From positions 1-54,387 of the IMG/VR virus record IMGVR_UViG_3300010273_000001: a stretch of DNA of 54,387 nucleotides; one strand, written 5' to 3'. Both the position numbers and the translations under genes were made by a program. Below the pieces are notes generated by a model, which worked only from the letters and a program-made list of their open reading frames with translations, was not told the origin of the DNA and ran no database searches. This document shows, in pieces, positions 20,447 through 54,387 of the stretch. The DNA is from a virus. Numbering within the stretch: position 1 is the stretch's first letter; the number at the start of each line of letters is the position of its first letter.

Positions 20447-20450
20447 TGCT

Positions 20451-27495: not shown

Positions 27496-27649
27496 AGGTG
27501 ATTTATGAAATTTTATATTTATACAAAAGAAAACGAATGGAGAATAGCTGCTGCATGTAAGCAAGATAGGGATGATTTAGAAGAACATATTATAGAAGCT
27601 GAAACTTTGCAAGAAGCAATAGAGAAATTTGAAAAAGGAGGGAAACTTG

Positions 27650-28276: not shown

Positions 28277-28769
28277 ACTTCGTAGCAAAGTTTATAAAGG
28301 GCTAGGCACTACGAGCATTTTCATTAATTCTTTTGGAGGCTTCTTTGTCTATGAATATTTCAAAGATTGGGACGATTTTAAAAAAATGTTGCAAAATTTT
28401 ATTATAGTTGAAGAAAAGAGCCTTAAACTTAATTTTGCCGTTGCTTTTCCGATGTTGGTCGGATTAATAATCTGTGTGATTTTGGTTTTGAAAAAAAACC
28501 GCTCTTATTTCAAAGACAAAATTAGTTTAGGTTTACTTTTGACTATTCTAATATGCTACTTTATTTATAGCATTATTGAAATTGCTTTGTCGTTTTTGGT
28601 CGGGGCTTTTACAGGGGCAATAGCGGATGATTTTGTTTTTTCGCCGTTATCAAATTCGGCTAAAGTAAAAGCAAGTGAACAACGAGAAATCGAACTCGAA
28701 AAAGAAAAAGAGCGATACCGTTTGATCGCTCGAAAGGAAGCGAGGGAAGAGTTAGATGGAAGCGTTTGA
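28248..28769 (+). CDS. multi-pass membrane protein (173 aa)
   Basis: Hydrophobic segments FAVAFPMLVGLIICVILVL and LGLLLTILICYFIYSIIEIALSFLVGAF. Confidence 0.6.
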   Translation: MKRRKKKNYKLRSKVYKGLGTTSIFINSFGGFFVYEYFKDWDDFKKMLQNFIIVEEKSLKLNFAVAFPMLVGLIICVILVLKKNRSYFKDKISLGLLLTILICYFIYSIIEIALSFLVGAFTGAIADDFVFSPLSNSAKVKASEQREIELEKEKERYRLIARKEAREELDGSV

Positions 28770-29937: not shown

Positions 29938-31255
29938 AAAAATGAATAATGAACTTGAGCCGAATCTACATGAATTAGCGAAAACTCCTTATGGCGAACT
30001 CGAGATAACAAAATACCTTTACGAAAGCGGTTTGCAAAATATTTTCGAAGATTATCAAAAAAGTATGTCGGCTCTTTCGCAGCAAGAACAGCAGAGTTTA
30101 CAGGATGCTTATTTTATCCGGGAAATGAGCAAAAAATATCTCGGGGAATATGCGTCTAATGTTGGGCTTGGAGATGTTTCGGACAGTTTGCTTGATATTT
30201 ATGGGCAGTATCAGCAAAACCTCGGAAATATTCGCCAAAGTTATGATGCATTACGGCTCAATCTTACGCAAGAGTATAACAAGGCTCGGGAAGAAACGAT
30301 GCGCAATTTGCTTTTGACGAATTACGGAATTGAGGTCGCAAAATTGAGCGAGAAAACTCAGCAAGTAATGCATAATATAATTGTTGGTGAAACAGAAGGA
30401 TATGATCCGGTTGAATATTTGCAAAAACATAGGAATTTGATTGGGGAACATAATTATCGGGCGATTTACGAAACACTGTATAGTCAAGGTTTGCTTGGTC
30501 AATCCGATTTGGAATTCCATGATATTATGAATCCGGGTAGTGAACATTATGTCGGGGATGATTACGATTTCAAACTTATGACCGGAGAAAATGTCGATAA
30601 AAATTCTATCGGATTTATTGATCCGGCTGGGAATAAAAAATTTTCGGTTGTTGAAGATGCGGATAACGACCCGAAATTTGATATAACCGGCGAAGAATTG
30701 TATGAGATTTTTGACAAAAATTATCAAAAGGGTTTAGTCAATCATGCCGTTCCGGTGCAGGGGGACATTGTCCTTGCCCGTGGCTACAATAACGAGACCA
30801 ATTCCACGGAATTAGTGGAATATATCTTTAATAACGGTAGATGGCATAGGCTTGTTACCGAAAAGCCCATAGCTTCTAGTCCAGACGAGATGAAATTATG
30901 GCGAATTCCAGAAGAAAGGAAAAACATTGAACTTACCGATTTTAAAGCAAGCAAGAATAGTGTAACGTTTAACGGTATTACTTGGGTTGCTGAAAAAAGT
31001 TCGTATTTTTCTGTAAATAAGAATTTCGAGCGCGTCCGCTCACCATTTGGTGCTGCTGAGTTCCAAGATTCTCAGGAAGTTATTGAAGAAGTTGTAATTG
31101 ATTGGGCTACACCGGATCAAGCAGAGATAGCGAAGTTATTCAAGGAAACACATGGATATTCTAAAGATACTACTTTCGTGATGTATAACGGTGATATGTA
31201 TATGTTGCGCGGTAAAGAGGGCAAAATTTATAAAATGAAACGCAAAGAGGAGTAG
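29909..31255 (+). CDS. hypothetical virion/ejection-module protein (448 aa)
   Basis: SD GAGGAGG lies 6 nt before the ATG at 29909. Confidence 0.65.
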   Translation: MADLFSKAIKKMNNELEPNLHELAKTPYGELEITKYLYESGLQNIFEDYQKSMSALSQQEQQSLQDAYFIREMSKKYLGEYASNVGLGDVSDSLLDIYGQYQQNLGNIRQSYDALRLNLTQEYNKAREETMRNLLLTNYGIEVAKLSEKTQQVMHNIIVGETEGYDPVEYLQKHRNLIGEHNYRAIYETLYSQGLLGQSDLEFHDIMNPGSEHYVGDDYDFKLMTGENVDKNSIGFIDPAGNKKFSVVEDADNDPKFDITGEELYEIFDKNYQKGLVNHAVPVQGDIVLARGYNNETNSTELVEYIFNNGRWHRLVTEKPIASSPDEMKLWRIPEERKNIELTDFKASKNSVTFNGITWVAEKSSYFSVNKNFERVRSPFGAAEFQDSQEVIEEVVIDWATPDQAEIAKLFKETHGYSKDTTFVMYNGDMYMLRGKEGKIYKMKRKEE

Positions 31256-31258
31256 GGT

Positions 31259-40468: not shown

Positions 40469-40483
40469 TTGCCCTCTTTTTTT
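40459..40483. terminator. hairpin terminator shared by the two convergent arms
   Basis: AGAGGGC-TAATT-GCCCTCT followed by T6. The stop codons of both convergent genes lie in or next to the loop. Confidence 0.7.
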
Positions 40484-41508
40484 GTTTCTGAAAATAATTG
40501 ATCTAAAAATGTCGGCTCGGCCTCGCCTTTGTTGTTCCAATAGATGTTTTCAACCACCTTTTTCTTCGGCTTGTTGTCGCCTAAATCGCCGTTATCGAAT
40601 AATTGAATCTTGTAATCAAAATTTATTGGCTTAATATCTTCCGGGGCTTCATAGGACGAAACATAAACCGGATACGGGCAAGTCCTAAACCATTGCCAAA
40701 ATTTCTCGTAATCAAATTCACCTCCGAATTGGTATTGAGCCTTATTTTCATACGGCGGATCACAATAGATGAACGCTTCTTTGAGAATAACATCCGGCAA
40801 GGAATTATAGAAATCGAGCCAATCCATAGCCGAGAGATTAAGCCGATTCTGGTGCGGAATTGCGCGTTTTATTGCATCGAGATGTTCCATTTGCTGTAAA
40901 TGCTGCATTTGAACGAGTAATTTTAATACAGGATATTCTTTTTCGTGTTCTTCGGCATACTTTTTAAATTTTTGCATAAATGCAGTTCTTTTGGTATAAT
41001 GTCGCTTGTAATCAACATTTCTGATTATTTCCGGGACGGTAAAATCTTCGAGTTCTTTCAGTTTTTTTATTTCGCTGAAATCATCAAATACTAAAGCATT
41101 ATGTAAGGCTTTTTTGTAGAAATCCCGGTCGGGGCCGTAAAGATAATGTCTTTGGTTGATTCCGAAAGACCAAACATTGAGGACGAAACCGACATACCAA
41201 TCTGGGTATTTTTCGGGATTATCGCGTACCTCTTCGAAATGTTCGCGGGAGACCCAATTAAATTTTACCGTTTTTAAGTCGGAATTTTCGTTTATAATCG
41301 CTTTTATAAGGGCGATAAGGTATTTATTAATATCGTTCGCAAAAACGATATAGTTCGAATTTACAAGCGCAAAATTCGAAACGGAGAAGCCGCCGCAGAA
41401 TAAATCAATAAAATATCTTTTTTTGTATTCGCGCTCGAAGATATAACGAATTAAGTGCAAGATTTGCTCTTTACTCCCCATGTAAACCATTCCGTATCTT
41501 CTGTTCAT
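40465..41508 (-). CDS. dam: Dam-like (D12 class) N6-adenine DNA methyltransferase
   Basis: YMGSK N-terminus, motif I DLFCGGFSV and motif IV YCDPPY. Confidence 0.85.
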   Translation of the reverse strand: MNRRYGMVYMGSKEQILHLIRYIFEREYKKRYFIDLFCGGFSVSNFALVNSNYIVFANDINKYLIALIKAIINENSDLKTVKFNWVSREHFEEVRDNPEKYPDWYVGFVLNVWSFGINQRHYLYGPDRDFYKKALHNALVFDDFSEIKKLKELEDFTVPEIIRNVDYKRHYTKRTAFMQKFKKYAEEHEKEYPVLKLLVQMQHLQQMEHLDAIKRAIPHQNRLNLSAMDWLDFYNSLPDVILKEAFIYCDPPYENKAQYQFGGEFDYEKFWQWFRTCPYPVYVSSYEAPEDIKPINFDYKIQLFDNGDLGDNKPKKKVVENIYWNNKGEAEPTFLDQLFSETKKEGN

Positions 41509-41656
41509 CTTTCTCTCTTTCGTTATAAATATTTTGGAGTTTTTTCTTAACTTTTGTTAAAGCAGCGACGGTTTCACAATTCCCCGATTTATGAGCGCGC
41601 ATGAAAGCAGTAGCGGTTATGAGCAAAAGAATTTCGTTATTCGTAAATTCGTTCAT
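41471..41656 (-). CDS. hypothetical protein (61 aa)
   Basis: SD GGGGAGGAA upstream of the ATG. Confidence 0.55.
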   Translation of the reverse strand: MNEFTNNEILLLITATAFMRAHKSGNCETVAALTKVKKKLQNIYNEREKDEQKIRNGLHGE

Positions 41657-41672
41657 TCAGTTTCCTCCCCTA

Positions 41673-41960
41673 TTAAAGAATATAATTCTGAATAAATTTC
41701 CTCGTTTCTTCTTCTCCGTTGAGTAAGAAATATTTCCCCCCGGCAACTTTAATTCGTGTTCCCCAACTTTCTTGCAGATTGGAGCGTTTGTAATTGGTTT
41801 CATTTTTGAATTCGACATAATAAATTTCTCCTCTCTCTGTGTTGAATACCATCCTGTCCGGGAATCCCCGGGCAATCATTTCGGTTTTCGGACATTTAAA
41901 GCCTTTTTTATTACACGCCCGAACAAGCATTGCCTCTACATTTTTCTCAAGAAGTTTCAT
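41673..41960 (-). CDS. VRR-NUC family nuclease
   Basis: PD-(D/E)xK pattern GFPDRMVF...YYVEFK in a 95-aa protein. ATGA overlap with the upstream gene. Confidence 0.7.
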   Translation of the reverse strand: MKLLEKNVEAMLVRACNKKGFKCPKTEMIARGFPDRMVFNTERGEIYYVEFKNETNYKRSNLQESWGTRIKVAGGKYFLLNGEEETRKFIQNYIL

Positions 41961-42517
41961 TTGCCCCTTTTCTTCCTCCTTCTATAATAATATCTCTGTC
42001 GGCGGAAAAGCCCATTGATTTCTTTTCGGACTTTTGCCGCCAACGATAAATTGATGTAATCAGTTTTGTTGTCTGCAAAACTCTCTATAATTTCCAAATC
42101 ATAACTGCAAACAAAACGATGCACTTGGTTGTCGATCACAACGAATAACTCGAAATTATCAGTTTTGAAATCGAAATAAACTCCGGCGCGTGGAAATTTT
42201 TTTTCGATTTTCTCCTTGAAATTCTTCAATGCAACGATGCTAGCCCCCCGCTGTCTTATCCGGTCATATTTGTTGATATTAGCATTGACTTTATAAACCG
42301 AAAACATACCGGTATCCTCGATCAAAAAGAAATCCTCGTGGAAGAATGAAAGAATTTCTTGTAATTCTTCTTCAGTATCGGCCCCGGTCATGTAAATATC
42401 CCCGGTGGCTAAATCATCTTTAGTCAAATTATAGAAATATTCTATTGCTTCCGAAGGACGTAATTTTTTGTAATGTTCTTTTGTCGTTTTTTTCATCTTT
42501 TTAATTATGTAAATCAT
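41957..42517 (-). CDS. hypothetical protein (186 aa)
   Basis: SD AAAGGTGG precedes the ATG at 42517. Basic C-terminal tail. Confidence 0.6.
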   Translation of the reverse strand: MIYIIKKMKKTTKEHYKKLRPSEAIEYFYNLTKDDLATGDIYMTGADTEEELQEILSFFHEDFFLIEDTGMFSVYKVNANINKYDRIRQRGASIVALKNFKEKIEKKFPRAGVYFDFKTDNFELFVVIDNQVHRFVCSYDLEIIESFADNKTDYINLSLAAKVRKEINGLFRRQRYYYRRRKKRGK

Positions 42518-42528
42518 ACCTACCACCT

Positions 42529-45087
42529 TTAAAACGGCAAATCGTCCGAATTTTCTTTTTTCTTTCTTATAAGCAATTGATGCCCGAAAACTCCAAAGCG
42601 TCTTTGTTCTTTTGTGATTTCCCAACCGAGATTTTTCAAAGCCTGCTCAATCAATTCTCGATGATAACGGTTAATAGTCAAATCTTTTTGCCCGAGGGCT
42701 ACTTGCCAGAGTTCTTTCATGCAAACCTTATCTACCGGCTCAAGGCTTGCCCCCTTCCAAGTCATGTCGGTGCATTTGTTTATATCAAAATTATAATTTT
42801 TAAGATAGAATAGCATATCCTCAACTTGCATGGAATACCAACTTTTCGGGCGTTCCATATTGAGGTAATTACTTAAAGCACCATAGAAATCGTTCTCGGC
42901 AAGATTTTCTTCATTCGCTCTTTCCCAATAGAATAATTCTAGATCAGACCATTGGAAAATGTCAAATCCGTTTTTATAAAGATGAATCGCTTCAGCAATC
43001 AATTGGTCTTTATAATATTGTGTAAACTCACTGCCCGGCTTAATATAACATTCTTGTTTTTTTAATGGGCTTTCGATTACCATAAACCGGCGATTCCCGG
43101 TGCGGTCTCGAAGCGGTCTTGACTCGTTCGTTGTTCCGCCAAAGACAACCCGCCGACGAATTTCAACATTTCTTCTTCCATAAGAACGGCGGAATTTATC
43201 CTCGGTCTTATCAACGAAAGCTTTAATACTTTCTTGTTCGGACATATTCATCCCGGCAAGTTCTTTCCACTCGTAAATCCAAATCCCTTCCAACTGTTCA
43301 TAACTATCCTTTGCGCGGTTGAAATCAATTTTAGTGTCGGAATAAAGATGTTCTTCCGGTTTATTGAAATCAATTGTCGCTAGGCGTTTGAAAAATAAGG
43401 ATTTACCGATTCCTTGTTCCCCTTTAAGAACAAGCACCAAATCCATTGGCGAACCGGCTTTATAAATTCGGGAAACCGCCCCCACAAGCCAATGTTTTAA
43501 AGCAGCTCGGGTAAAAGGATTCAAAGGGACTTTAAAAAAGTCATGGAAAAAGAATTCCAACCGTTCTTTCCCGTCCCATTGCAAACTTTCAAAGTATTCC
43601 AAAACTTTGTTTTTCTGAATTTTATCCGCTTCAACGACAACCGCATCTTCGATTACTCGATCCCCCTTTATACCATAGACTTTATCAAGATAGGCGCGGA
43701 TATGGGACATATCCCGGTCAGTTATGGCATCTCCTACATTAAATTCCTTGCGCCAGAACGGTTTTCGTAGAAAACAAATATTATCCCGAAAAGTATCATA
43801 ATAGAGCAAATTTTTAAGATTTGAATCATATTCAAAGATGACGGCTAATTTTGCATACGCGCTTTTTACTCCTTCAAGTTTTACTATCCATTTTGTATCC
43901 TCTTCCAAAGGAGTTTCTGCTTGAGATTTCTGATCCCCGAAAAATTCCTCTATATATTTTTGTTCTTGTTCCAGCCTTTGAACAAGTTCTATACTGTTAT
44001 CGGTATTAGCGACAACTTCAGGGAGTGTTCGGCAGAATTCTACCATTTTAAGAAAACTCTCCGTTTTTTCATATACTCCTTGTTCTATATATCTTTCCGG
44101 AGTAAATTTGTTATCAAATTTCCCGAATTTATGAATCCTTACCAAATCGAAAGCACTGCGATAGAAAAGGTTGGCTGGGTCTGTTCCATGATGAGAATAA
44201 AAAAGCGTATCGTTGTTTAAAATAATACCGCCGCCTTTGCTGGTTCCATCCAGATAAGTGTATCTGCCATTCCTCTCCTTTTTATACACATCTGATAAGA
44301 ATTTTTCTATCGCTTGTGAAACGCTGTATGTTCGATTGAATGCGCCAACCATCCCTTTCGCTTTTAGGGGATTTTTATTTGCTAGCACGTTTTTTCCGAT
44401 GCGTTCTTGATCGATTTTTTCTGGCGTGAACCATTCGAAAATATCATTTTTATCGAGATATTCGTTTAAAATTTCGTCAACATCAATAATTTTTTGTTGT
44501 TCGGCAAAAATATCGACATTTAAGAGTTCGCAAATATATTCGCCATCAGCCGACACTGATGGAAAGAACATTAACCTATTTGCTTGAAAGGTTGTTTCGT
44601 CGAATAGCCCCCGAAACGGCTCCCCGGTAGGCGGGTTTTCGATTTTATAGGCTAACCGCCTACCGAGTGCTTCGTATTCATCCGCATTAACTGGTCTTGA
44701 CAGGGGGGCAATAATTCTAAATCGATTTTCCTGTGGCGAATGGCTGTGCGTTGAATGAACCAAGCAGAAGAAATCAATATTTTTTTGCAAATAGGGGAAA
44801 ACGTTAGGGAATTTCGTGTCAATATCAAGGGTAAGCAAATGGCGCATTATCTTAACTCCGGCAATTCGCCTATTCCCTTCGGTTTCTCCGCCGATAAATC
44901 CTCCAACATCTTTGATAGTAGCTTTTGTCTGTTTGTCGGCGTTCATATACTCGGCATATTTTTCTTTAGTTCTTTTTACCTTGTGTTTGAATCCGAAATA
45001 AATATCCTCAAAAGTTCTTTCCATTAAAGTTCCGGTTGTCTGATAGCGATTTTTAAATACGGTAATTTTATATTTCGGACTTCCCAT
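42529..45087 (-). CDS. primase-helicase (AEP prim-pol-like N-terminus plus VirE/D5-like P-loop NTPase)
   Basis: LTLDIDTKF and VHSTHSHSP (AEP-like), plus P-loop LKGEQGIGKS. SD GGGGGAGAA precedes the ATG at 45087. Confidence 0.8.
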   Translation of the reverse strand: MGSPKYKITVFKNRYQTTGTLMERTFEDIYFGFKHKVKRTKEKYAEYMNADKQTKATIKDVGGFIGGETEGNRRIAGVKIMRHLLTLDIDTKFPNVFPYLQKNIDFFCLVHSTHSHSPQENRFRIIAPLSRPVNADEYEALGRRLAYKIENPPTGEPFRGLFDETTFQANRLMFFPSVSADGEYICELLNVDIFAEQQKIIDVDEILNEYLDKNDIFEWFTPEKIDQERIGKNVLANKNPLKAKGMVGAFNRTYSVSQAIEKFLSDVYKKERNGRYTYLDGTSKGGGIILNNDTLFYSHHGTDPANLFYRSAFDLVRIHKFGKFDNKFTPERYIEQGVYEKTESFLKMVEFCRTLPEVVANTDNSIELVQRLEQEQKYIEEFFGDQKSQAETPLEEDTKWIVKLEGVKSAYAKLAVIFEYDSNLKNLLYYDTFRDNICFLRKPFWRKEFNVGDAITDRDMSHIRAYLDKVYGIKGDRVIEDAVVVEADKIQKNKVLEYFESLQWDGKERLEFFFHDFFKVPLNPFTRAALKHWLVGAVSRIYKAGSPMDLVLVLKGEQGIGKSLFFKRLATIDFNKPEEHLYSDTKIDFNRAKDSYEQLEGIWIYEWKELAGMNMSEQESIKAFVDKTEDKFRRSYGRRNVEIRRRVVFGGTTNESRPLRDRTGNRRFMVIESPLKKQECYIKPGSEFTQYYKDQLIAEAIHLYKNGFDIFQWSDLELFYWERANEENLAENDFYGALSNYLNMERPKSWYSMQVEDMLFYLKNYNFDINKCTDMTWKGASLEPVDKVCMKELWQVALGQKDLTINRYHRELIEQALKNLGWEITKEQRRFGVFGHQLLIRKKKENSDDLPF

Positions 45088-45748
45088 ATTTCTCCCCCAA
45101 TATCCATTTCGCCCTAGCAATGCAAGTGTCTTTTATTGCACAATATGCACAGGCTTTTTCGCTCGGATTATAGGTGAGTCTGTTTTGCCGAATATCGTCG
45201 AATACTTTTTCTTTTTCGATGAAGAAATCCAGAATGTTTTCGGGGGTTGTATTAATTGTGCGCATTTTGCCTTTTTGATGTATTGACAATCTAATATTTT
45301 GTATATCGGGATATTCCAATACTACATAAGCCCCGTAAAATAAAAGCTGTTCGTTATCTTCTTCATCGACTTCCTTTCTACCCGTTTTGAGATCAATAAT
45401 GCTTGCGGTGTCGCGACCAATAAGTAAAGCATCTATTACCAAATGAATATCGAAATCGTAAATAGTCATTTTTTGCTTTTGCTCTGTAAATATTTTGGTG
45501 GCAAGTATTTCGTTATATTCGCGCCAAACAGAATTTACATAACTTTCTACAATAAATATTTCGTAATCATTTATTTTATTATTGATTTCAAATTCGCGGG
45601 TATCTTCATTCCGCAACCTTTTTTCCGCAAACTCGTGCAGTAATTTTCCTCGTATGGTCGCGGCGTTTTCGACAAAAGGCACATCGTGCATTAAAGAAGC
45701 AGTGCAATTTAGAAATCTATGTGCCTTGCTGGGCGACAAATTATACAT
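45068..45748 (-). CDS. Cas4/RecB-like PD-(D/E)xK exonuclease (DUF2800-like)
   Basis: N-terminal SPSKAHRFLNC, IIDLKTGRK, and C-terminal CAYCAIKDTC cysteine cluster. SD AAGGAGGAGAG precedes the ATG at 45748. Confidence 0.75.
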   Translation of the reverse strand: MYNLSPSKAHRFLNCTASLMHDVPFVENAATIRGKLLHEFAEKRLRNEDTREFEINNKINDYEIFIVESYVNSVWREYNEILATKIFTEQKQKMTIYDFDIHLVIDALLIGRDTASIIDLKTGRKEVDEEDNEQLLFYGAYVVLEYPDIQNIRLSIHQKGKMRTINTTPENILDFFIEKEKVFDDIRQNRLTYNPSEKACAYCAIKDTCIARAKWILGEKYGKSEI

Positions 45749-45777
45749 ACTCTCCTCCTTTTCCTGCAAAAACGGCA

Positions 45778-46734
45778 TTATTGAATTGCTAAATAAATCT
45801 TTTCAATCTGCTGTGGGTTGAGTTTATGCAACTCGAATGTTCCGAATTCGGCGCATATGCTTTTAATTTTTTCTCTTTTTTCATTATTGCCCCCGATCCA
45901 AGCAATTTTAATAGCCTCGACCATCATTTTCAGCCGAGCCGGATCGGTCGGTTCGTCCTTTTCGTTAGTTTCAAGCGTTTCTTTAACATTCTCCGATGCA
46001 GACGGAGTTACAGGAGTTTCAATCGGATTTTCCGACGGCTTTTCAACAGGAATTACCGGTGTTACCTTGATTTCAACAGGAGCAACTGTTTCTTCGGTAG
46101 TTTCTTCGTCCGGCTTTTCCGATGTTTTAGACACAACCGTTTCGACAACGATATCTTCAACTTTTTGGGGGGCAACCGGTTTCTGAACAGGCTTTGTCTG
46201 TTCGACTAATTTTTTCGCTTTATCGAGACCTTTCGGTGTCTTGTCGTCTTCTTCGAATTGTGTGTCATAGTTTTCAAACCATTTATAACCGATGCCGCTC
46301 ACGATAGCAATGGCTTTAACTTTCGCGCGTTGGAAAGCACGGTTGAGATCGTTTTGAGTCCAAGAAGCCAATGGTCTCCCGTTCGAATCTTGAAGCGGAT
46401 ACCGTTCAACATGACGCCGCCCCTTCCATTCCGCGGCAACATTGATGAAAAAAGAATAACTGTATCTGATAGAAACTTCTCCGGTAACAGGGTCGACTTC
46501 ATGGCGAGCATAACATTTGTCGACCTCGACAACCGTTTCGTCCGTTGCTCTCAGCAATTCAATCTTACCGTCTTGCAATTGGAAAATTCTTTCCACAACT
46601 GCCCAAGGCAAATAAAACGCATCTTTTTTTGCCCCGAAATCCAAAGTTCGAGTGAATTTTTCTAGGCCTTCGCATTCTCCTTGATTGTTGTAATTCTTCA
46701 GCCAAAGGTCTTTCCAATTTTGAGTATTTTCCAT
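45778..46734 (-). CDS. Rad52/Sak-like single-strand annealing protein (DUF1071-like) with a P/E/V-rich linker
   Basis: YLPWAVVERIF and NRAFQRAKVKAIAIVSGIGYKWFE resemble the Sak/DUF1071 pattern (from memory). Lies between the exonuclease and SSB genes. Confidence 0.55.
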   Translation of the reverse strand: MENTQNWKDLWLKNYNNQGECEGLEKFTRTLDFGAKKDAFYLPWAVVERIFQLQDGKIELLRATDETVVEVDKCYARHEVDPVTGEVSIRYSYSFFINVAAEWKGRRHVERYPLQDSNGRPLASWTQNDLNRAFQRAKVKAIAIVSGIGYKWFENYDTQFEEDDKTPKGLDKAKKLVEQTKPVQKPVAPQKVEDIVVETVVSKTSEKPDEETTEETVAPVEIKVTPVIPVEKPSENPIETPVTPSASENVKETLETNEKDEPTDPARLKMMVEAIKIAWIGGNNEKREKIKSICAEFGTFELHKLNPQQIEKIYLAIQ

Positions 46735-46749
46735 TATATAACCTCCTTT

Positions 46750-47067
46750 TTACTCTACTACCCTTATGCTTTCCTTCGCCACTTTTATTTCGACATTGTC
46801 CGGATTGGACAGAATAAGTTTTTGTGTTTCAGCATCGAATTCTTGCAGCTTTTTAAAGCGTTCTTCGACAACTGTAACCGAATATCCTAATTGCTGGAGA
46901 AGTTTATAAGTTTCTTCTTTAATGGTTATGGTCTTGCGTCCAGCATAAATTTTAATGCGCTTGTCGTCTCTATGGTTTTGCAAAATCAGAGTTTCAAGCG
47001 CAGCCAACTGTTCTTCTATTTCTGATTTTTGTTTACGCAATTCAAGATAGCGACCTACAACATCCAT
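46750..47067 (-). CDS. hypothetical coiled-coil protein (105 aa)
   Basis: SD ATGGAGG upstream of the ATG. Confidence 0.6.
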   Translation of the reverse strand: MDVVGRYLELRKQKSEIEEQLAALETLILQNHRDDKRIKIYAGRKTITIKEETYKLLQQLGYSVTVVEERFKKLQEFDAETQKLILSNPDNVEIKVAKESIRVVE

Positions 47068-47228
47068 TTAAATAAAACCTCCATAATAAAATTTTTTTGA
47101 ATAACCGAACCCTCCGACAGTTATTCCTGGAACCCCCATTGTTTGCAAGCAGAGCGCACAGAAAGGAGAATGTGCAGAGAAACCGCCCGTGTTCCATTCC
47201 CGGCATACAAAAGACTGCGTTTAAAAGT

Positions 47229-47726
47229 TTAAAACGGAAAATCTTCATTTGAGAGGTCAACGAAGTCATCAAAGAGTTCATTATGATATTTGGTGACTGG
47301 GCGTTTGCGCGATGCTACTGCTCGAGGTATGAGCAAGAAAATCCCTTCATCTTTTGTTTTGGACAAATGAACCTCAAGACTGTAAATATAATCAGCAATT
47401 TCTTCGGGGGGAATGGTTTCTGTCGTCAGACCTTTGTAAAACTTGACAAAATTGGAAACACGGAGAGAGACGCCATACTGTTCATCTTCCTCCCACTTGG
47501 GATAATTTCCGTAGAAAATCGAATTTTCACGGGGGCGAAGTAATTGAGACGCCTGCCAGAGCAAAGATTTTGCCTCTTCGGGCTTTTCAAACTTGAACGA
47601 TCCAAAATAACGCTTACTTTTTCCATCATAATACGGCTCAACAAGATGTTTGCTATTTACGCAATAAGCGTCATCCAAACGAAGAACTACTTTGCCTTCT
47701 TGTTCGTAATGTAAAATTTTTGCCAT
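47229..47726 (-). CDS. ssb: single-stranded DNA-binding protein (candidate)
   Basis: C-terminal acidic tip ...DLSNEDFPF resembles the SSB DDDIPF tail. Sits in the recombination module. SD AAGGAGG. Confidence 0.55.
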   Translation of the reverse strand: MAKILHYEQEGKVVLRLDDAYCVNSKHLVEPYYDGKSKRYFGSFKFEKPEEAKSLLWQASQLLRPRENSIFYGNYPKWEEDEQYGVSLRVSNFVKFYKGLTTETIPPEEIADYIYSLEVHLSKTKDEGIFLLIPRAVASRKRPVTKYHNELFDDFVDLSNEDFPF

Positions 47727-47764
47727 TTAATAAACCTCCTTTTTTTAATTTTCTCGGCAATTAT

Positions 47765-47793
47765 ATTTTACTATAATTTTTAAGACAAGTCAA
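47765..47793 (-). promoter_or_regulatory. promoter TTGACT-17-TAAAAT for the replication/recombination block
   Basis: On the minus strand, TTGACT is at 47793..47788 and TAAAAT at 47770..47765. The spacer contains GTCTTAAAAA. Confidence 0.5.
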
Positions 47794-47838
47794 GCACAAT
47801 TTTAAAGTTTTTTTAAAAAAGTATTTTGAGCCTAAAAT

Positions 47839-47901
47839 TTGCGTTATATTGCGGGCAAGGGAAGGGAATACAAAGATATCCACTCCCCCCTCTAAACGCA
47901 A
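47839..47901 (-). terminator. long imperfect hairpin after the lipoprotein gene (terminator candidate)
   Basis: UUGCGUU/AACGCAA closing stem around a purine-rich/pyrimidine-rich pairing, followed by AUUUU. Confidence 0.35.
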
Positions 47902-48004
47902 TAGACAAGAAAAGAGACGGGGAATTATTTATTTTCTTTCCAATTCGCCTATTATTTGGTTGTCATTTATTTTCACTCTCCTTTTCTTTAAACAGAAACA
48001 TCCA

Positions 48005-48337
48005 CTATTTAATCACCCCCTCCGGGATTGGTAATTTATCTTTTTCTTTAATCTCAACAACTGTGCCAATAGGAAATTGTTCCTCAAAACTTTTCGTAAA
48101 CAAACCGGTTTTTGGATAAACTCTAACCATAAAACCATCTCCATTCTCTACATCAAAAATTAAATAATATTCGGTTTGAAGTTCCCCATCAACCAAAACT
48201 TTTTTGGTATAATGCCCATCAATTTCTGCATAGATTGTTTTTTCTTCTTGTGCTTTACAACCAAACAATAAAAATGTCGAAATCAAAATCAAAAACATAA
48301 AACACAATAAAAGATTTACTGTTTTTTTCAACTTCAT
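48005..48337 (-). CDS. putative lipoprotein (110 aa)
   Basis: Signal peptide MKLKKTVNLLLCFMFLILISTFLLFGC with a lipobox-like LFGC. ATGA overlap with the upstream gene. Confidence 0.55.
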   Translation of the reverse strand: MKLKKTVNLLLCFMFLILISTFLLFGCKAQEEKTIYAEIDGHYTKKVLVDGELQTEYYLIFDVENGDGFMVRVYPKTGLFTKSFEEQFPIGTVVEIKEKDKLPIPEGVIK

Positions 48338-48618
48338 TCTCCTTTCTTTTTATCAATAATTATTTTTATTTTGCAATAAATGTCAGCGATTTCTTCCGCT
48401 ATAAGTTCAAGGTCTTCAAGTTCTGTGGGCTTTTCGTCGAGTATTATTAACATCAAAGAGGCAATACGCAACCTGCATGCTTGCGCTTGAGATGTATTCC
48501 CTTCTTTTGTTGCTACTTCATTACTTACTTCAATAATTTCCTTTATGCCTACTTTTTCAGCCCTTTCTATAATAGCCAAATCAGCCTGAGTCATATTAAC
48601 CAAATTCAAAATTCTCAC
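48334..48618 (-). CDS. hypothetical protein (94 aa), paralog of 3266..3607
   Basis: GTG start after SD AAAGGAGAA. The C-terminus is similar to 3266..3607. Confidence 0.55.
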   Translation of the reverse strand: MRILNLVNMTQADLAIIERAEKVGIKEIIEVSNEVATKEGNTSQAQACRLRIASLMLIILDEKPTELEDLELIAEEIADIYCKIKIIIDKKKGE

Positions 48619-48683
48619 TCTTTTTTTCTCCTTTTAAAAGTTTATTTTTAATGCCGGCTCTGGTGCGGTTTAGCCACAACTCA

Positions 48684-49217
48684 TTACTGCAACGCATCTA
48701 GTCTTGCATTGATTTCATTTAAAGCTTTTTCTAGGGCATCTTCCAGATCGTCAAAAGCATTAGCTATATCTTCAAGATCTTCGATGCGCTCAACCAAACT
48801 CGGAATATAATCGTAAACATCGCTGTCATAAAGTTTTTTTATTTCTTCCCACCGGTTCGCTAAACGGTTCATTCTTTCGTTATATTCCACAAGAGTGATT
48901 GCACCTGTCGCTAGATCATGCTGTGCTTCTAAAACAGGTTCATAGATAGTAAGTATTTGTTTTGAATATCTTTGCATTTCTGCAATATCAGCATCTTCTA
49001 GGTCAGTAATTCGGTCTTTTAAATCGGAAATAGCAGTCTCAATGGAGTAGAACTTATCGTTTAAATCCGTCTCAAGTTCTTCCATATCTGCTTGATATTG
49101 TTTTTCAAACTTGTTAATTTTGTTATATGCAATCGCACTAAAAACCCAACCACTAACGATTATAACAATAACCATTAGTCCGAAAATATAATTTAATATT
49201 TTGACATTTTTTTTCAT
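48684..49217 (-). CDS. membrane-anchored coiled-coil protein (177 aa)
   Basis: N-terminal TM ILNYIFGLMVIVIIVSGWVFSAIAY. SD GAAGGGAGAG. Confidence 0.6.
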   Translation of the reverse strand: MKKNVKILNYIFGLMVIVIIVSGWVFSAIAYNKINKFEKQYQADMEELETDLNDKFYSIETAISDLKDRITDLEDADIAEMQRYSKQILTIYEPVLEAQHDLATGAITLVEYNERMNRLANRWEEIKKLYDSDVYDYIPSLVERIEDLEDIANAFDDLEDALEKALNEINARLDALQ

Positions 49218-49232
49218 TTACTCACTCTCCCT

Positions 49233-49328
49233 TCATAAGAATTTATCAGCGAAAAATATCACAACAAACAACACTATTGCTAATACTAATCCTAACCACC
49301 AGCCGAGATCGTCTTTGTTGTCTTTCAT
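49233..49328 (-). CDS. tiny single-pass membrane peptide (31 aa; not in ORF track)
   Basis: My translation gives MKDNKDDLGWWLGLVLAIVLFVVIFFADKFL. ATGA overlap with the stop of 49325..49519. Confidence 0.45.
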   Translation of the reverse strand: MKDNKDDLGWWLGLVLAIVLFVVIFFADKFL

Positions 49329-49519
49329 GATGTTTTCTCCCTCAACACAACGACCTCAACTTGCGGTTCCTTTATCTGCTTGCTGATTTTGCAAGCAACA
49401 TCATAGCAATAACCTCTAGCAAATTCTCTGACGCCTGTCCATATCGGACGACCATTAATAAACCCCTTGACATAGATCCTGCTATCCTTTCTGCGGATTG
49501 CAAATTCTAAATTGTTCAT
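49325..49519 (-). CDS. hypothetical protein (64 aa)
   Basis: SD GGGAGAGGAG upstream of the ATG. Confidence 0.55.
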   Translation of the reverse strand: MNNLEFAIRRKDSRIYVKGFINGRPIWTGVREFARGYCYDVACKISKQIKEPQVEVVVLREKTS

Positions 49520-49554
49520 GGCATCACTCCTCTCCCTATTTTTTATTCCGAGTT

Positions 49555-50511
49555 TTAACTAAAATCTAAATAAAACTGATAGTGTGTATTTTTAATCCTT
49601 TTTTGGGCCATTGAAACATATTCAGGGTTTATTTCAATCCCTATCCAATTACGTCCTAATTTTTTTGCTACTACTCCGGTAGTTCCGCTTCCCATAAACG
49701 GATCCAAAACAATTCCGTCTTTCGGGCAACCAGCTTTTATTGGAGTTTCGATAAGCTCCTCAGGGTATACTGCGAAATGTAGCTCACTAAAATTTCTTGT
49801 CGATATAGACCAAACAGAACGTTTATTTCGCATAAGGTCTACGGGTGGTTTATACCTATCATTAAAACCTATATAATCATTTCTCCCAACTAAATCTTGT
49901 TTTCTTCTTCCACTATTTATTTGACCTATAACCCCTTTACTTCCTCTAGGTGGATTAATATCTTCTGTAACCATAGGTTCTTTTTGTTGTTCAAAGTAAT
50001 ATTTTTTATTTTTAGTAAAGAAAAATAGTTTTTCAAAATCAACCGTAAACCGATCTTTAACGCTTTCCGGCATAGCATTCGGCTTATGCCATATAATTTC
50101 GTTTCGAAGAATATAGCCTAGTTCATCGGTCATCATAAGGGCAAACCGAGATGGTATTTGCAACAGACATTTACCAGTATATTTTTTGCTCAATGAAATG
50201 CTTTGACCGTTTCTACCGTTTTTATATTTAGGATCTTTATAGTTTTGCTTATCGCCAGTTCCACCATAGGCATCCCCTAAATTTACCCAACAAGAACCTT
50301 CTGCTTTTAAAACTCTTTTTACTTCCGCAAATATTTCGCATAACTTTTCTAAATATTCTTCTAAAGTATCTTCTCTACCTAATTGATCTTTTACTCCATA
50401 ATCTCTTAATCCCCAATAAGGCGGAGATGTGATTACCATATCAACACTTTCACCAGGGAATGTTTTCAGAATCTCTAAACAATCCCCTTGATAAATATGA
50501 TTAATTTTCAT
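49555..50511 (-). CDS. beta-class DNA methyltransferase (N4-C/N6-A family; SPPY type)
   Basis: Motif IV ITSPPYWGLRDYG near the N-terminus and motif I DPFMGSGTTG near the C-terminus. Confidence 0.85.
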   Translation of the reverse strand: MKINHIYQGDCLEILKTFPGESVDMVITSPPYWGLRDYGVKDQLGREDTLEEYLEKLCEIFAEVKRVLKAEGSCWVNLGDAYGGTGDKQNYKDPKYKNGRNGQSISLSKKYTGKCLLQIPSRFALMMTDELGYILRNEIIWHKPNAMPESVKDRFTVDFEKLFFFTKNKKYYFEQQKEPMVTEDINPPRGSKGVIGQINSGRRKQDLVGRNDYIGFNDRYKPPVDLMRNKRSVWSISTRNFSELHFAVYPEELIETPIKAGCPKDGIVLDPFMGSGTTGVVAKKLGRNWIGIEINPEYVSMAQKRIKNTHYQFYLDFS

Positions 50512-50541
50512 TACATCATCTCCTTCACATTCTCGCTTCTT

Positions 50542-52488
50542 TCAAAATAAACTCAATTGACCTTTTTCTTTCGCTTTTTCTAATTCTTGTTGATAATCAT
50601 ATTTATACTTGTTTAAAGCATAATCAATTCTATCCCTTGCAATATTGCAATATTCTTCCTCTAAATCAATTCCAATGAATTTGTAATCGGCTTGTCTTTC
50701 TCTATTTTCAAACATACACGCTTTGCCGGTTGAACCACTTCCCATAAATGGATCAAGTATTATTCCGCCCTTTGGTGTTACTAATCGGACTAAATACTGC
50801 ATTAACTCACAAGGTTTTACTGTTGGATGAATATTTTTACGAAGAGTTTCGCCGCGTTGATATGGATTGTCGATTGATTTTTTACGCCCATCATTTATAG
50901 TGGATGCCGCTATCTCCAACCCTTCATCTCTATCTTTTTTATTTGCTTTTGCACAATAGAAAAATCGGGAAGCAGAACCACTATCACCGTATGTTTCACT
51001 TAATGGATGTTCTTTATTAAACTTACCATAAATACCATTAGGACTACCATCAGTGTGTCTTTGATGTTCGCTTGTCATTTTCCCACTTTTCGTATGAGGA
51101 AATAAACTTTCTACTTCATCACTTCCATCGTGGATTACGTTTGCTGGAAAACGACCTTGGGATGTTTTCTCAGTTATACACTTCTTGGTTCCCCAACCAT
51201 CACTCTGTAAGTTATCTAAAAATCCAACATTTGTTGCAATAGTTTCACCATTTTCTAACGGAATCCTACAACCATCAATGTTAATACCACCCACACCATA
51301 TTTGATTACATTATCGGCAACCGTTCCTTTAAATGGTTTTCTTGCAACAATTATAGGTTCATAGGCAGGTTTTAATGCAGTTCCCCAACCTTGCCATTGA
51401 TTTTGTGCTTGTTTGATTTCATATTCGCCACCGAAAGGATTTTTAACCATATTTAGACTTCTAGTATGTGTATTTGCGTTTCCACTTTTGCCTTTCCCAA
51501 TTATTTTACTTTTTAGCCCTAATTTTTTATCTATCGCTAAACCTATATTTAATGATTTTGGGAACCCTGAATTACCCGTTATAAATATTTGACCGTTTCG
51601 CCTAGCCACAAACGCACCCGTTGGAACTTGAACGCACCACATGTTTCCGACATATTCTACTTCTTCGACAGTCGCCAGAGTGGTTCGGGTTTTCCCGTAG
51701 CCCCACATACAGGGCAGGTTATCAACACCTTCCCCTCGCATTGCTCCGGAGGGATTACTTTCCCCTTCTTGTTTTTGCTGATACTCTTGGAGGCGCACTC
51801 TTTGGAGCAAGTCTTGTTTCGTGATGCTTGTTCCTTCGTGTGGGTAGGGAATGGTTTCCGGCAGATCGTGCAAACTTTCCAAAAAGGGTACACTCTCTTG
51901 ACGTTCCAATGTTTCGGCGTAGGCAAATACTTTTCTTCCGCCTCGTTCAACAATGCAACGATGATTTCGGGAAACGATTTGGTCTGTAAAATCCGATTTA
52001 ATTCGGTAGGCGGGATGTTTGTTTTCATAGATAAAACTCCTTTCGGGTTGGTGGATCTCGAAAGAATCTTTATCCATGTTATAACATATTACGGGGCTTT
52101 CTTCAATGGCTTTATGGTATCGTTCCCATCCGTTAAGTGTCAATATCTCTGTATCTTCCGACAAGCATCCATATAACCACATAATGGTATCTCTTATTTC
52201 AAACCCAGCATCCTCAATAGCACAAGCAATTCTGTGAAATGTTTTACTGCCGCCAAATGCTAATAAATAACCGCCTGGTTTTAATACTTCATAGCACTTT
52301 CGCCAAGTTTCAGGTTGAAAAGCAATTCCTGTTCTATCCCACCCTTTATTCATAAAGTTAAGTTCATATGGTGGGTCAGTTATTATTGAGTCTATTGTAT
52401 TTGGTTCTATAATTTCTAACATATCTAACATAGAACCGTTATAAATAGAATAACTCTCTGTGTTTGCTATTAGTTTTATTTTCGCCAT
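50542..52488 (-). CDS. beta-class DNA methyltransferase (DPPY type) interrupted by a mini-intein
   Basis: TDPPYELNF and DPFMGSGSTG. The extein junction IMWLYG|SGFPKS is restored after removing aa C..N (199 aa). ATG at 52488; the ORF-track start at 52506 is TTG. Confidence 0.85.
   Translation of the reverse strand: MAKIKLIANTESYSIYNGSMLDMLEIIEPNTIDSIITDPPYELNFMNKGWDRTGIAFQPETWRKCYEVLKPGGYLLAFGGSKTFHRIACAIEDAGFEIRDTIMWLYGCLSEDTEILTLNGWERYHKAIEESPVICYNMDKDSFEIHQPERSFIYENKHPAYRIKSDFTDQIVSRNHRCIVERGGRKVFAYAETLERQESVPFLESLHDLPETIPYPHEGTSITKQDLLQRVRLQEYQQKQEGESNPSGAMRGEGVDNLPCMWGYGKTRTTLATVEEVEYVGNMWCVQVPTGAFVARRNGQIFITGNSGFPKSLNIGLAIDKKLGLKSKIIGKGKSGNANTHTRSLNMVKNPFGGEYEIKQAQNQWQGWGTALKPAYEPIIVARKPFKGTVADNVIKYGVGGINIDGCRIPLENGETIATNVGFLDNLQSDGWGTKKCITEKTSQGRFPANVIHDGSDEVESLFPHTKSGKMTSEHQRHTDGSPNGIYGKFNKEHPLSETYGDSGSASRFFYCAKANKKDRDEGLEIAASTINDGRKKSIDNPYQRGETLRKNIHPTVKPCELMQYLVRLVTPKGGIILDPFMGSGSTGKACMFENRERQADYKFIGIDLEEEYCNIARDRIDYALNKYKYDYQQELEKAKEKGQLSLF
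51571..52167 (-). mobile_element. 199-aa mini-intein (Hint domain)
   Basis: Block A CLSEDTEILTLNG, block B IVSRNHRCIV, blocks F/G MWCVQVPTGAFVARRNGQIFITGN followed by +1 Ser. No endonuclease domain is present in frame. Confidence 0.8.
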
Positions 52489-52583
52489 TTGTTTCAGCCC
52501 TTTCAAAACAAACTCATTTGTTCCTGCTTTAAAATAGTGCTAGTTGACCTTTAACGCAGAGAATTAAGATAATACCCCGAGTT

Positions 52584-52796
52584 TTATCTCTGTTTCGCTT
52601 TCTGCAAAATAAGAATCTTTTCTCCGTCCGTTTCTCCAAGCAAAATTTCAAATGACTTTGTCTGCATTATATCCCGATATTCTTTCGGAATAACAATACG
52701 ACCTAATTTGTCAATATCACGGCGAATGCCAATCGGCTTAACTTTTTTGCTTTTAATAAGACTTAATATCTCTTCCTTCGTATATTTAATTCTCAA
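52584..52796 (-). CDS. AbrB/MazE/SpoVT-type DNA-binding regulator (70 aa, TTG start)
   Basis: IRRDIDKLGRIVIPKEYRD...EKILILQK matches the AbrB swapped-hairpin motif. SD AAGGAGGAG lies 5 nt before the TTG at 52796. The ORF-track ATG at 52883 overlaps the upstream gene. Confidence 0.7.
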   Translation of the reverse strand: MRIKYTKEEILSLIKSKKVKPIGIRRDIDKLGRIVIPKEYRDIMQTKSFEILLGETDGEKILILQKAKQR

Positions 52797-52857
52797 GTTT
52801 GCTCCTCCTTCTCTTCGATTCTCACATACATCCAATTCCCCAGGGGGAGTAATTGAT

Positions 52858-53961
52858 TTAAGAATTGCTTTTCTGTATTTCATAGTTCTCCTTTTTCTTT
52901 ACCCTTGCTATAATCTTTCCACATAACCCCCACTCTTCAAGCGGCACTTCTCGCAACACTTTTGCTTTGCTTGTTCTAACTTTACCATCGGAATCCAACG
53001 GTAATACAATATCTTTGATATCAGTCTCTAATTCTAGGATTGCTAAATCAGACCAACTTCCCCCATAATTCAAAGCCCAATCCAAATGAGAAATATGTAT
53101 GCCCGTTGAACAATCTTTTTCATTATTAGGATCGCATTCTCCTTTTACTGTTTCACCGATTTTATAAATAAAATTGCTGTTATAATCGCTACGATATATA
53201 TCGCCATCTTTATGCACTGCTTTATAAAAAACAGCTTTTTTATTATCGTGCTCTATTTCATAAAAATCCATAAATTCCCGAATTGTCTGGGGGGGATAAA
53301 CAATACGAGCATTGCCAAACGCTCGGACTTTCCCCTTCGTTTGATTAATGATTTGACTATTGCCATAGCCTTCAACAGATGAACTATCCCGAGCAACAAC
53401 AAAAGAATTTCCCTTAGCCTCAACCCAAGAGTTACCCCTAGCCTCAACCGAAGAATTTTCGATTGCTATAACCATATAATTCCCCAAAGCCACAACATGA
53501 GAATTCCCCGAAGCCGCAACATAAGACTTATCCCAAGCCTCAATCGAAGAATTGTCCCGAGCCGAAACCCAAGACTTATCCCAAGCCTCAATCGAAGAAT
53601 TGCCCGTGGCTACAACCGAAGAAAGATCTCGGGCTACAACCGAGGAATTATCTCGGGCTACAACCCCGGATTTATCCAAAGCCACAACAAAAGAATTTTC
53701 CAAAGCTTCAATCGCAGACCTATCTCTAGCCTCAACCACAGACTTCCCCTTAGCCACAACAGAGGAATTCCCACAAGCCACAACATGAGAATTATTCAAA
53801 ACCACAACAGGTAAATAATATCTGTTTCTTACTTGTATTTTATGGCTACCACAATCAACATAAATCATACCTTTAAAACTCAAAGGAATCGCATCTAACT
53901 CAGCTTGGGTTCTAACCGTTATTTCGGTTAGTTTTGAATAATCAATATTTTTCATATTCAC
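52858..53961 (-). CDS. octapeptide-repeat (beta-solenoid-like) protein with globular C-terminal domain
   Basis: About 19-21 tandem 8-aa units x(G/D)(N/K)Sx(V/I)xA. SD AAGAGGTG. Confidence 0.75.
   Translation of the reverse strand: MNMKNIDYSKLTEITVRTQAELDAIPLSFKGMIYVDCGSHKIQVRNRYYLPVVVLNNSHVVACGNSSVVAKGKSVVEARDRSAIEALENSFVVALDKSGVVARDNSSVVARDLSSVVATGNSSIEAWDKSWVSARDNSSIEAWDKSYVAASGNSHVVALGNYMVIAIENSSVEARGNSWVEAKGNSFVVARDSSSVEGYGNSQIINQTKGKVRAFGNARIVYPPQTIREFMDFYEIEHDNKKAVFYKAVHKDGDIYRSDYNSNFIYKIGETVKGECDPNNEKDCSTGIHISHLDWALNYGGSWSDLAILELETDIKDIVLPLDSDGKVRTSKAKVLREVPLEEWGLCGKIIARVKKKENYEIQKSNS
53296..53799 (-). repeat. tandem 24-nt coding repeats (octapeptide units)
   Basis: Units include LNNSHVVA, CGNSSVVA, KGKSVVEA, RDRSAIEA ... 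YGNSQIIN. Confidence 0.85.
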
Positions 53962-54006
53962 ACCTCTTTTTCAATCTCTTTCTTTTGTCCATAAACACAA
54001 CCAAAA

Positions 54007-54384
54007 TCAGACGTAGTCGATTTCGGCAAGAGTTTGTTCAATTTCATCCTGTAATGCTGTAGGTTTTGGGCAATCGCATCCGCTTGGCTTGCGGCCTTTC
54101 CAAAGACATTTATATTTTTCAATTTCATCATAAGCTTTCGTCAACAATTCCCTCATCCTCGCCACTCGCACCCTTGATTGCTCTATTTGCTTTTCCCTTG
54201 CGATTACCTCATCCATAAGGCATTTAACTTCGTACTTCCAATCTTCAAGTTTTGCCCGGAGCTGCTCATTCTCCTGCTGCAAGGCTTCGATAGCTTCAGC
54301 AGCCTCATCTATTAGCCTGTCTATATGCGTCCATCCAGACATGCGATTGTTTTTTCGCAATTTCTCTAGCAATTCTTCATACAT
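54007..54384 (-). CDS. coiled-coil protein spanning the circular junction
   Basis: The ORF runs into the terminal repeat. The likely true start is the ATG at window 129..127 (MNGMYEELL...) behind SD GGAGGGAAG. C-terminal Cys cluster CLWKGRKPSGCDC. Confidence 0.65.
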   Translation of the reverse strand: MYEELLEKLRKNNRMSGWTHIDRLIDEAAEAIEALQQENEQLRAKLEDWKYEVKCLMDEVIAREKQIEQSRVRVARMRELLTKAYDEIEKYKCLWKGRKPSGCDCPKPTALQDEIEQTLAEIDYV

Positions 54385-54387
54385 GCC
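54265..54387. repeat. Terminal direct repeat copy 2 (identical to 1..123)
   Basis: Direct comparison of both window ends. Confidence 0.95.

Follow-up and report, generated by a model that had tools for sequence, protein, structure and literature searches.

Two questions are raised by a phage DNA methyltransferase gene whose conserved core is split by a 199-residue segment: is the segment an intein, and what lies between its splicing domains? The gene is located in the window, the term used here for the whole stretch of 54,387 nucleotides analysed (positions 1..54,387 of the IMG/VR record IMGVR_UViG_3300010273_000001). Genes for a terminase large subunit, tail-fibre proteins, helicases and a primase identify the window as a phage genome. 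When 24 kb of it were compared by megablast with 50,697 phage records, no match was obtained, and the phage is considered as uncultured. An earlier note, made from the sequence alone, had placed a mini-intein at 51571..52167 (minus strand, as for all features below unless otherwise stated); these coordinates were found to be exact and the blocks that it quoted are all present. The best explanation, to which a probability of about 0.85 was assigned, is that the segment is a genuine Hint-fold mini-intein with a linker derived from an HNH endonuclease gene, and a decayed member of a lineage which carries this gene in the +1 frame.

The interrupted gene (50542..52488) codes for a precursor made of a beta-class N6-adenine/N4-cytosine DNA methyltransferase and the intein (PF01555, E = 2e-35; PHROG 67, DNA methyltransferase, E = 1e-62). 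The PF01555 model matches the open reading frame (ORF) 50542..52506 in two pieces separated by the 199 residues, and this ORF reads ...IMWLYG/CLSEDTEILTLNG...IVSRNHRCIV...MWCVQVPTGAFVARRNGQIFITGN/SGFPKS, in which the slashes mark the junctions. The mechanical ORF (654 residues) begins at TTG 52506, the ATG at 52488 being the likely start. Computed from this ATG, the precursor has 648 residues (73.2 kDa), the spliced product 449 residues (50.2 kDa) and the intein a mass of 23.0 kDa. The identical protein is present on four contigs and is also recorded as P0066, called from MAKIKL. The N-extein (52168..52488, 107 residues) contains the DPPY motif and ends in IMWLYG. The C-extein (50542..51570, 342 residues and the stop codon) carries the S-adenosylmethionine (AdoMet)-binding DPFMGSGSTG and starts with Ser+1 (51568..51570), the putative nucleophile of the branched intermediate, SGFPKS following the Asn in all family members. 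The G+C content of the insert is 45% versus 34-35% in both exteins.

As a single sequence, the insert gave only sub-threshold matches in Pfam, NCBIfam and the Protein Data Bank (PDB) (E = 0.05-0.07), the best one in PDB being the AceL NrdHF intein (E = 0.066), and PHROGs matched its C-terminal blocks only, in a ribonucleotide reductase (RNR) family. A search with the insert alone retrieved 65 homologues (proteins labelled P0001 and following), nearly all in PF01555 proteins at the identical position and with the pattern W-x-Y-G/CLSEDTEILT ... FVARRNG-x-x-F-[IV]-T-G-N/SGFPKS. The profile of a family alignment of 20 trimmed insert copies matched in PDB the AceL NrdHF intein (6zgq, E = 1.3e-11), the Aes123 PolB1 intein (9hth, 2e-4) and the Spl DnaX intein (7cfv, 5e-3). 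The Hint-profile and block check proposed in the earlier note failed with the curated Pfam and NCBIfam models and succeeded with the family profile, the blocks being conserved. Only chance matches were obtained in PDB when the last 48 residues served as the query sequence, and blocks F/G could not be aligned with AceL residue by residue. A profile search of 1.84 billion representatives yielded 613 proteins at E≤1e-30; among the best 150 of these 613, the profile matched 105 in two stretches with an insertion between them, 24 in a single stretch (minis) and 21 in three or more.

With the same 20-sequence alignment, AlphaFold2 predicted a Hint fold with a mean pLDDT (predicted score of the local distance difference test) of 87 and a predicted template-modelling score (pTM) of 0.82, versus a pLDDT of 40 with the single sequence. 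When this model was compared with PDB by Foldseek, the top 50 matches were all inteins, bacterial intein-like (BIL) domains or hedgehog Hint domains, and the best was again 6zgq (E = 6e-8, TM-score 0.76 on the target); 37 PDB matches, with inteins at their head, had E≤1e-3. The same-site homologues, the 613 profile matches and the G+C difference between insert and exteins put this identification far beyond chance. Profiles and predicted structure support a bona fide Hint-fold mini-intein within the conserved methyltransferase core.

The intein extends from Cys1 to Asn199. The N-terminal splicing domain (residues 1-97, 51877..52167, pLDDT 89-98) includes block A, CLSEDTEILTLNG, with the Cys1 codon at 52165..52167, and block B, TDQIVSRNHRCIV, with Ser66 (B:7, 51970..51972), His69 (B:10, 51961..51963) and Cys71 (B:12, 51955..51957). 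It is joined by a linker of 63 residues (98-160, 51688..51876) to the C-terminal splicing domain (residues 161-199, 51571..51687, pLDDT 96-98), which consists of blocks F/G, MWCVQVPTGAFVARRNGQIFITGN, and contains Cys178 (F:4, 51634..51636), Thr197 (G:5), the penultimate Gly198 (G:6) and Asn199 (G:7, 51571..51573). Linker residues 138-157 are the sole part of the model predicted to be disordered (pLDDT <50). Gly184 stands where the F-block histidine is usual, F:13 having been assigned by eye against the usual H-N-F-V-A pattern. In the 20-copy alignment His69, Cys178, Gly184 and Asn199 are invariant and Cys1, Thr197 and Gly198 near-invariant, and at none of the invariant positions has the window copy changed. 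Both assisting-histidine positions, common but non-obligatory features of inteins, are glycine throughout the family. The penultimate glycine, singled out in the earlier note, is present but not unusual: in phage class 1 inteins the penultimate histidine is often replaced by Gly, Lys or Ser, and one intein with a penultimate Gly splices fully (PMC5050341). In agreement with the same note, neither Pfam nor NCBIfam detected an endonuclease domain in the intein frame, in which the two splicing domains are joined by the 63-residue linker alone.

The insertion point lies between Gly and Ser of a conserved W-x-Y-G/S-G-F-P motif. Excision of Cys1 to Asn199 restores IMWLYG/SGFPKS, and thousands of homologues of the spliced exteins lack the insert and carry an unbroken IMWLYGSGFPKS; in P0067 (73% identical), P0068, P0074 and P0078, for example, WLYGSGFPKS is contiguous. 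An empty allele is provided by L097, the contig that encodes P0067 and comes from a closely related phage. In the flanks of this contig, nucleotide identity to the window is 93-100%, and the N-extein is 93% identical up to window position 52169, one base from the N-junction, where homology breaks; the empty site reads ATTATGTGGCTATATGGGAGTGGTTTCCCTAAAGG. The restored junction had also been aligned with the neighbouring paralogue at 49555..50511. This alignment, with IIWHKPNAMPES, was reproduced only weakly (BLASTP segment, E = 0.023), and the correspondence is supported by the alignment of the junction to IQWVKNNPMPRN of DpnA (5hek), in which the site is the conserved W-x-K-x-N-x-M-P motif.

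The earlier note had seen in the linker only low complexity. Instead, the linker results from reading, in the intein frame, through a truncated gene for an HNH endonuclease that itself lies in the +1 frame. An ORF of 123 codons (51657..52028, 14 kDa) was recognised in this frame by tblastn against L008, one of the related IMG/VR viral loci (L001 and following), and reads MKTNIP...CTICRKPF...CSKEC...ITCPVCG/ATGKPEPLWRLSKK. It matches the L008 endonuclease only at residues 1-117 (75% identity) and 255-265 (91%), so that the zinc-ribbon part, the C-terminal tail and the original stop are kept and the HNH domain, residues 208-250 of the full-length relative, is gone; Pfam gave no match on the 123-residue remnant. 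A Shine-Dalgarno-like AAGGAG (52037..52042), within the intein codons Glu-Arg-Ser, is found 8 nucleotides upstream of the ATG (52026..52028). The scar TGTGGG/GCTACGG is located at 51701..51702 by blastn against L004, with 97% identity on both sides of the gap, and its left edge TGTGGG is supplied by L032. Relative to L004 and L032, 438 nucleotides (146 codons) including the HNH nuclease domain are absent from the window. From these alignments the window intein is read as a recent in-frame deletion derivative, the linker being the read-through of a dead endonuclease gene. With the HNH domain lost, the element should no longer be able to home by itself; no further HNH relatives or inteins were found in the window. 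The identity between L004 and the window is 97% over the intein and 72% in the distal C-extein, and the first ~165 nucleotides past the junction gave no BLAST alignment between them. A recently transferred element would be expected to show such a pattern.

An intact out-of-frame endonuclease gene, absent from the window, was found in most relatives. In 75 of the 80 related loci scanned, the intein frame (~270-430 residues) is open all the way from Cys1 to Asn and a profile-matched endonuclease lies in the +1 frame; two are endonuclease-free minis. In the remaining three the script found no complete intein, although one of them, L073, had been scored as open with a +1 ORF in an earlier scan. 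Three-frame reads of L001-L004 showed a complete HNH ORF of ~240-290 residues in the +1 frame, starting in the N-terminal splicing domain (MKTNIP... at intein codon 47) and stopping just before block F. Full-length +1 ORFs match PF13392 (HNH_3) at 36-44 bits, the curated cut-off being 24.8 bits, and GGAG with an ATG at intein codon 47 was seen in L008-L011, L016, L031, L034, L038, L055 and L066. Among the homologous proteins, one gene call, P0011, carries the HNH_3 match and several have long, mutually similar linkers. Those of P0023, P0043 and P0001 had been considered as a novel in-frame domain; this was rejected, since three-frame translation shows them to be the shadow of the HNH gene. A fractured gene or split intein as the general state, suggested by gene calls ending inside the intein and by a TAA in L004, was likewise rejected because 75-77 of the 80 loci are open.

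The mean pairwise variability of 42 non-identical full-length inteins was determined for each codon position. In the linker, read in the HNH frame, the values at positions 1/2/3 are 0.395/0.347/0.600. Read in the intein frame, they are 0.39/0.37/0.56 in the N-domain before the HNH start and 0.21/0.10/0.64 in the C-domain after the HNH stop, and variability is depressed at all three positions (0.34/0.22/0.37) in the doubly coding part of the N-domain. Wobble follows the HNH frame in the linker and the intein frame in the non-overlapped splicing domains, and both frames are under selection. When the synonymous codons of 57 endonuclease genes were resampled, 13.6 intein-frame stops were expected and none was observed, and none of the 17,100 resamples was stop-free; the loci had been chosen as open, which makes the zero partly a matter of construction.

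Decay was also observed in other loci. In the 97.7-kb contig L003 (3700-5100), the methylase and intein are decayed, with frameshifts and without the C-terminal splicing domain and the C-extein, and the +1-frame HNH ORF is intact (265 residues); the endonuclease appears here to outlive the intein, the opposite of what is seen in the window. L082 has a stop at codon 7. In L005, L006 and L007 (4001-6300), the methylase gene call ends in the N-domain of the intein with ...SRNHRCIVERGGRKDCD and a stop, and a Cas12f1-like_TNB gene (PF07282) lies ~700 nucleotides downstream on the opposite strand; these gene endings may be transposon-associated truncations. In L004 (1-60), the Gly-Lys codons of CPVCGK are GGT AAG versus GGG AAA in L032. 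Both codon differences are silent in the HNH frame, and with GGT AAG a TAA arises in the intein and methylase frame, precisely on the left border of the segment that the window has lost. If real, this TAA illustrates the cost of, or conflict between, two overlapping frames.

The following sequence of events is proposed. The gene would be translated as a 73-kDa precursor, in which Cys1 would form a thioester at the N-junction with the help of Ser66 and His69. The N-extein would then be transferred to Ser+1, cyclisation of Asn199 would free the 23-kDa intein, and an O-N shift would seal the 50-kDa methylase. In most members from uncultured phages, the central part of the intein is overlapped by an HNH gene of free-standing type in the +1 frame, with its own Shine-Dalgarno sequence and ATG in the N-terminal splicing domain, the intein frame being kept free of stops. 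The window copy has lost 438 nucleotides with the nuclease domain, leaving a linker that is a shadow translation. By analogy with characterised inteins, the product is probably a splicing-competent but immobile mini-intein.

The class 1 route described above is favoured on sequence grounds, and we regard it as likely because Cys1 is kept in every relative: it is found in all 80 viral loci and all aligned proteins scanned for it, and it is the decayed L003 copy that has it replaced. A class 3 or hybrid route, in which Cys178 (F:4) would attack the N-junction and form a block-F branched thioester, with Cys1 dispensable or acting as a relay, was considered as unlikely. The best match of the window intein in both sequence and structure is the AceL NrdHF intein (6zgq), an experimentally verified class 3 intein with Ser B:7, His B:10, Met B:12, Cys F:4, Thr G:5, the terminal Asn and Ser+1 (PMC7891396). 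All these residues except the one at B:12 are shared, as is the lack of assisting histidines, no His being present at F:13 or G:6 of AceL (PMC7891396); moreover, Cys178 is invariant and Thr197 near-invariant. Class 3 inteins are however characteristically without Cys1 (PMC5222942), which is conserved here. At the positions of the WCT triplet, Cys178 and Thr197 are present but B:12 is Cys71 in the window and Val or other residues in relatives, not Trp (AceL itself being MCT). In inteins as a whole, cysteine ranks second in frequency at F:4 (PMC4031507), and G:5 is not Thr in wider relatives such as P0186. AceL further shares with the window intein a phage-like contig and a separately encoded endonuclease. 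It differs in that it starts with Ala, is naturally split with a GIY-YIG gene between its halves and interrupts an RNR beta subunit, whereas the window intein is contiguous, starts with Cys and has the endonuclease gene overlapped out of frame.

Several points weigh against the interpretation as a splicing mini-intein of HNH origin. The curated models miss the insert. With glycine at both the F-block histidine position and G:6, activity in the window intein and its metagenomic branch is inferred by analogy with AceL NrdHF and phage recombination directionality factor (RDF) inteins. The 438-nucleotide deletion has altered the linker, with an effect on folding that is predicted by the model only. 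The stop-free intein frames of the resampling set are partly there by choice, the independent figure being the 75-77 open loci out of 80, and the intein-frame TAA of L004, a contig of 2x coverage, is either a read error or a sign that the frame is not always intact.

A rival reading is that of a degenerate, non-splicing remnant, either a tolerated loop or an insert that inactivates a methylase dispensable in view of the second one next door. The F-block and penultimate histidines are absent, the endonuclease is already lost from the element, and decayed relatives exist in L003 (frameshifts, Cys1 lost) and L082 (stop at codon 7). An intein-free paralogue is encoded at 49555..50511, and with the ShiLan domain this methylase family already offers a case of an insert that is not spliced (PMC11855218). 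On the other hand, all invariant family positions are intact in the window copy, and the His-to-Gly states are family-wide under strong purifying selection rather than decay specific to the window. Both exteins are intact with their catalytic motifs, the same protein is found on four contigs, and the conserved catalytic core would probably not tolerate an insert of 199 residues. Non-splicing decay is thus held to be improbable, more so than the class 3 route. That the insert is an ordinary inserted domain, a Hint domain of the BIL type or a self-splicing intron open in frame is hardly credible: Pfam is blank on the insert alone and BIL and hedgehog domains do appear lower in the Foldseek list, but the ends are intein-specific (Cys1, Asn-Ser), the site is conserved, insert-free homologues are contiguous, the frame is continuous and selected in the splicing domains, and the intron is rejected since Rfam at a permissive threshold matched no intron family (the sole match being sok, at 17 bits against a cut-off of 59).

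The mini-intein in a methyltransferase has known counterparts. A host of this type had been called uncommon, which does not hold for phages: Kelley et al. (2016) described N6_N4_Mtase inteins (DNMT-1/2) in mycobacteriophages (PMC5050341), and a 2025 survey lists PF01555 methylases among the known intein hosts (bioRxiv 10.1101/2025.01.02.630785). A tblastn search with the window intein against phage records matched gp65 of mycobacteriophage ShiLan, also a PF01555 protein, with an identical insertion point (IAWLYG/CLTADTEVLT...VWCVKVPTGAFVARRNGKVFITGN/SGFPKS). Both inteins have Cys1, the C-terminus VWCVxVPTGAFVARRNGxxFITGN, the penultimate Gly and Ser+1. They share 79% identity in blocks F/G and 26% in the N-domain (BLASTP, C-part E = 3e-14, N-part 9e-9). 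Because this homologue occupies the identical site, the window intein is, on sequence comparison, an allele of a known intein, and its methyltransferase host is not novel. The ShiLan gp65 intein differs in its 327 residues and in an in-frame central region that is LAGLIDADG-like by eye and from the literature, Pfam giving no LAGLIDADG match there. The branch of the window has or had the +1-frame HNH gene and belongs to uncultured low-GC phages, not to actinophages.

Out-of-frame endonucleases have also been described. The ShiLan domain is an out-of-frame HNH in a phage methylase that has no splicing domain and is thought to be retained (PMC11855218). As in the present family, an HNH with flanking zinc ribbons lies out of frame inside a PF01555 methylase whose frame is open, and the two endonucleases are homologous (28% identity, E = 7e-11). 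The ShiLan domain sits at another site ~90 residues downstream, whereas the HNH of the window family is nested in an intein able, in principle, to remove the shadow peptide. In the window copy the HNH part is deleted and the splicing domains are conserved, so that only the HNH lineage is common to both. A cyanobacterial dnaX intein carries an out-of-frame LAGLIDADG endonuclease, which its authors call "a rarity for annotated inteins" (bioRxiv 10.64898/2026.09.14.751524). In actinophage inteins, frame 3 has been reported to hold an endonuclease-VII-like gene, HNH being only in-frame in that survey (bioRxiv 10.1101/2025.01.02.630785). These systems share with the window family a same-strand endonuclease in an alternative frame, selection that follows this frame and co-existing mini-intein alleles. 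They differ by their LAGLIDADG or EndoVII-like endonucleases versus HNH_3 and by their host genes, and in the window family the endonuclease starts ~50 codons inside the N-terminal splicing domain with a clear Shine-Dalgarno sequence. The literature searched, the coverage of which is incomplete, yielded no description of a true intein that carries an HNH gene out of frame. The linker of +1-frame HNH origin is the new part, and the lineage is apparently undescribed.

Related inserts were noticed in other proteins. In P0186 (2602 residues), the intein profile matches nine stretches, and by eye one can make out at least four inteins belonging to the same clade (C...EVLT ... VWC...GN/S), all with the penultimate Gly; the intein type with Cys1, Cys at F:4 and Gly at G:6 is therefore not restricted to methylases. 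The window intein is weakly similar over its full length (26-27%, E = 1e-7 to 4e-7) to inserts in the terminase large subunits of the Vibrio phages 277E43-1, 249E41-1 and 193E37-1. Its N-domain also resembles inserts found in the beta subunit of RNR; the matched phages include Pectobacterium phage phiTE and relatives. From these similarities, the terminase and RNR inserts are probably related inteins in other host genes.

In the window, the intein-bearing gene is followed directly downstream by the second PF01555 methyltransferase (49555..50511, 318 residues, E = 3e-54), which is intein-free. The tandem methylases are distantly related, with 35% identity across the AdoMet-binding region, indicating a phage with two different N6/N4 methylases. 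Just upstream of the intein-bearing gene, a 99-residue ORF (52584..52883) has a C-terminal match to an antitoxin family of AbrB/SpoVT-like look (phrog_4681, E = 2e-7). L097 has an extra 245-residue PF01555 methylase gene (1249-1986) between its AbrB-like gene and the main methylase, where the window has only ~60 nucleotides (52516..52578). A further ORF of the window (52858..53961, 367 residues) contains ~15 tandem degenerate repeats of 8-10 residues (...NSSVVA(R/K)D/G...), and its C-terminal region matches RIIB lysis-inhibitor PHROGs (E = 2e-7 to 5e-7). In the structural module, one ORF of 3069 residues is located at 31259..40468 on the plus strand.

For annotation, the 654-residue ORF should be read as a 449-residue methylase plus an intein, and ORF 51657..52028 treated as a relic, not as a new gene. 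Beyond the window, we see a little better than an even chance that a large intein lineage, with hundreds of clusters at 50% identity in uncultured phages, has reached a decayed end-stage in this copy. In that lineage an overprinted +1 HNH gene would be translated from an internal Shine-Dalgarno sequence and ATG and would drive homing, and the intein would splice out the shadow peptide; the HNH lineage is also met naked, as the ShiLan domain. The gain, exchange and loss of intein endonucleases are still argued mostly from scattered cases. Here a single insertion site is found in three states: with an in-frame LAGLIDADG-type region in mycobacteriophages, with an out-of-frame HNH in most metagenomic phages, and as minis devoid of an endonuclease. 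The mini of the window is seen shortly after it lost the endonuclease, and a full-length relative of 97% identity is still on record. Two proteins are selected in overlapping frames in this family, which offers a clean natural example of this situation, and a compact Cys1/Ser+1 intein devoid of both assisting histidines and related to the fast-splicing AceL NrdHF could interest protein engineering. If the lineage is as proposed, it would provide direct evidence that endonuclease genes colonise pre-existing mini-inteins and replace each other in them.

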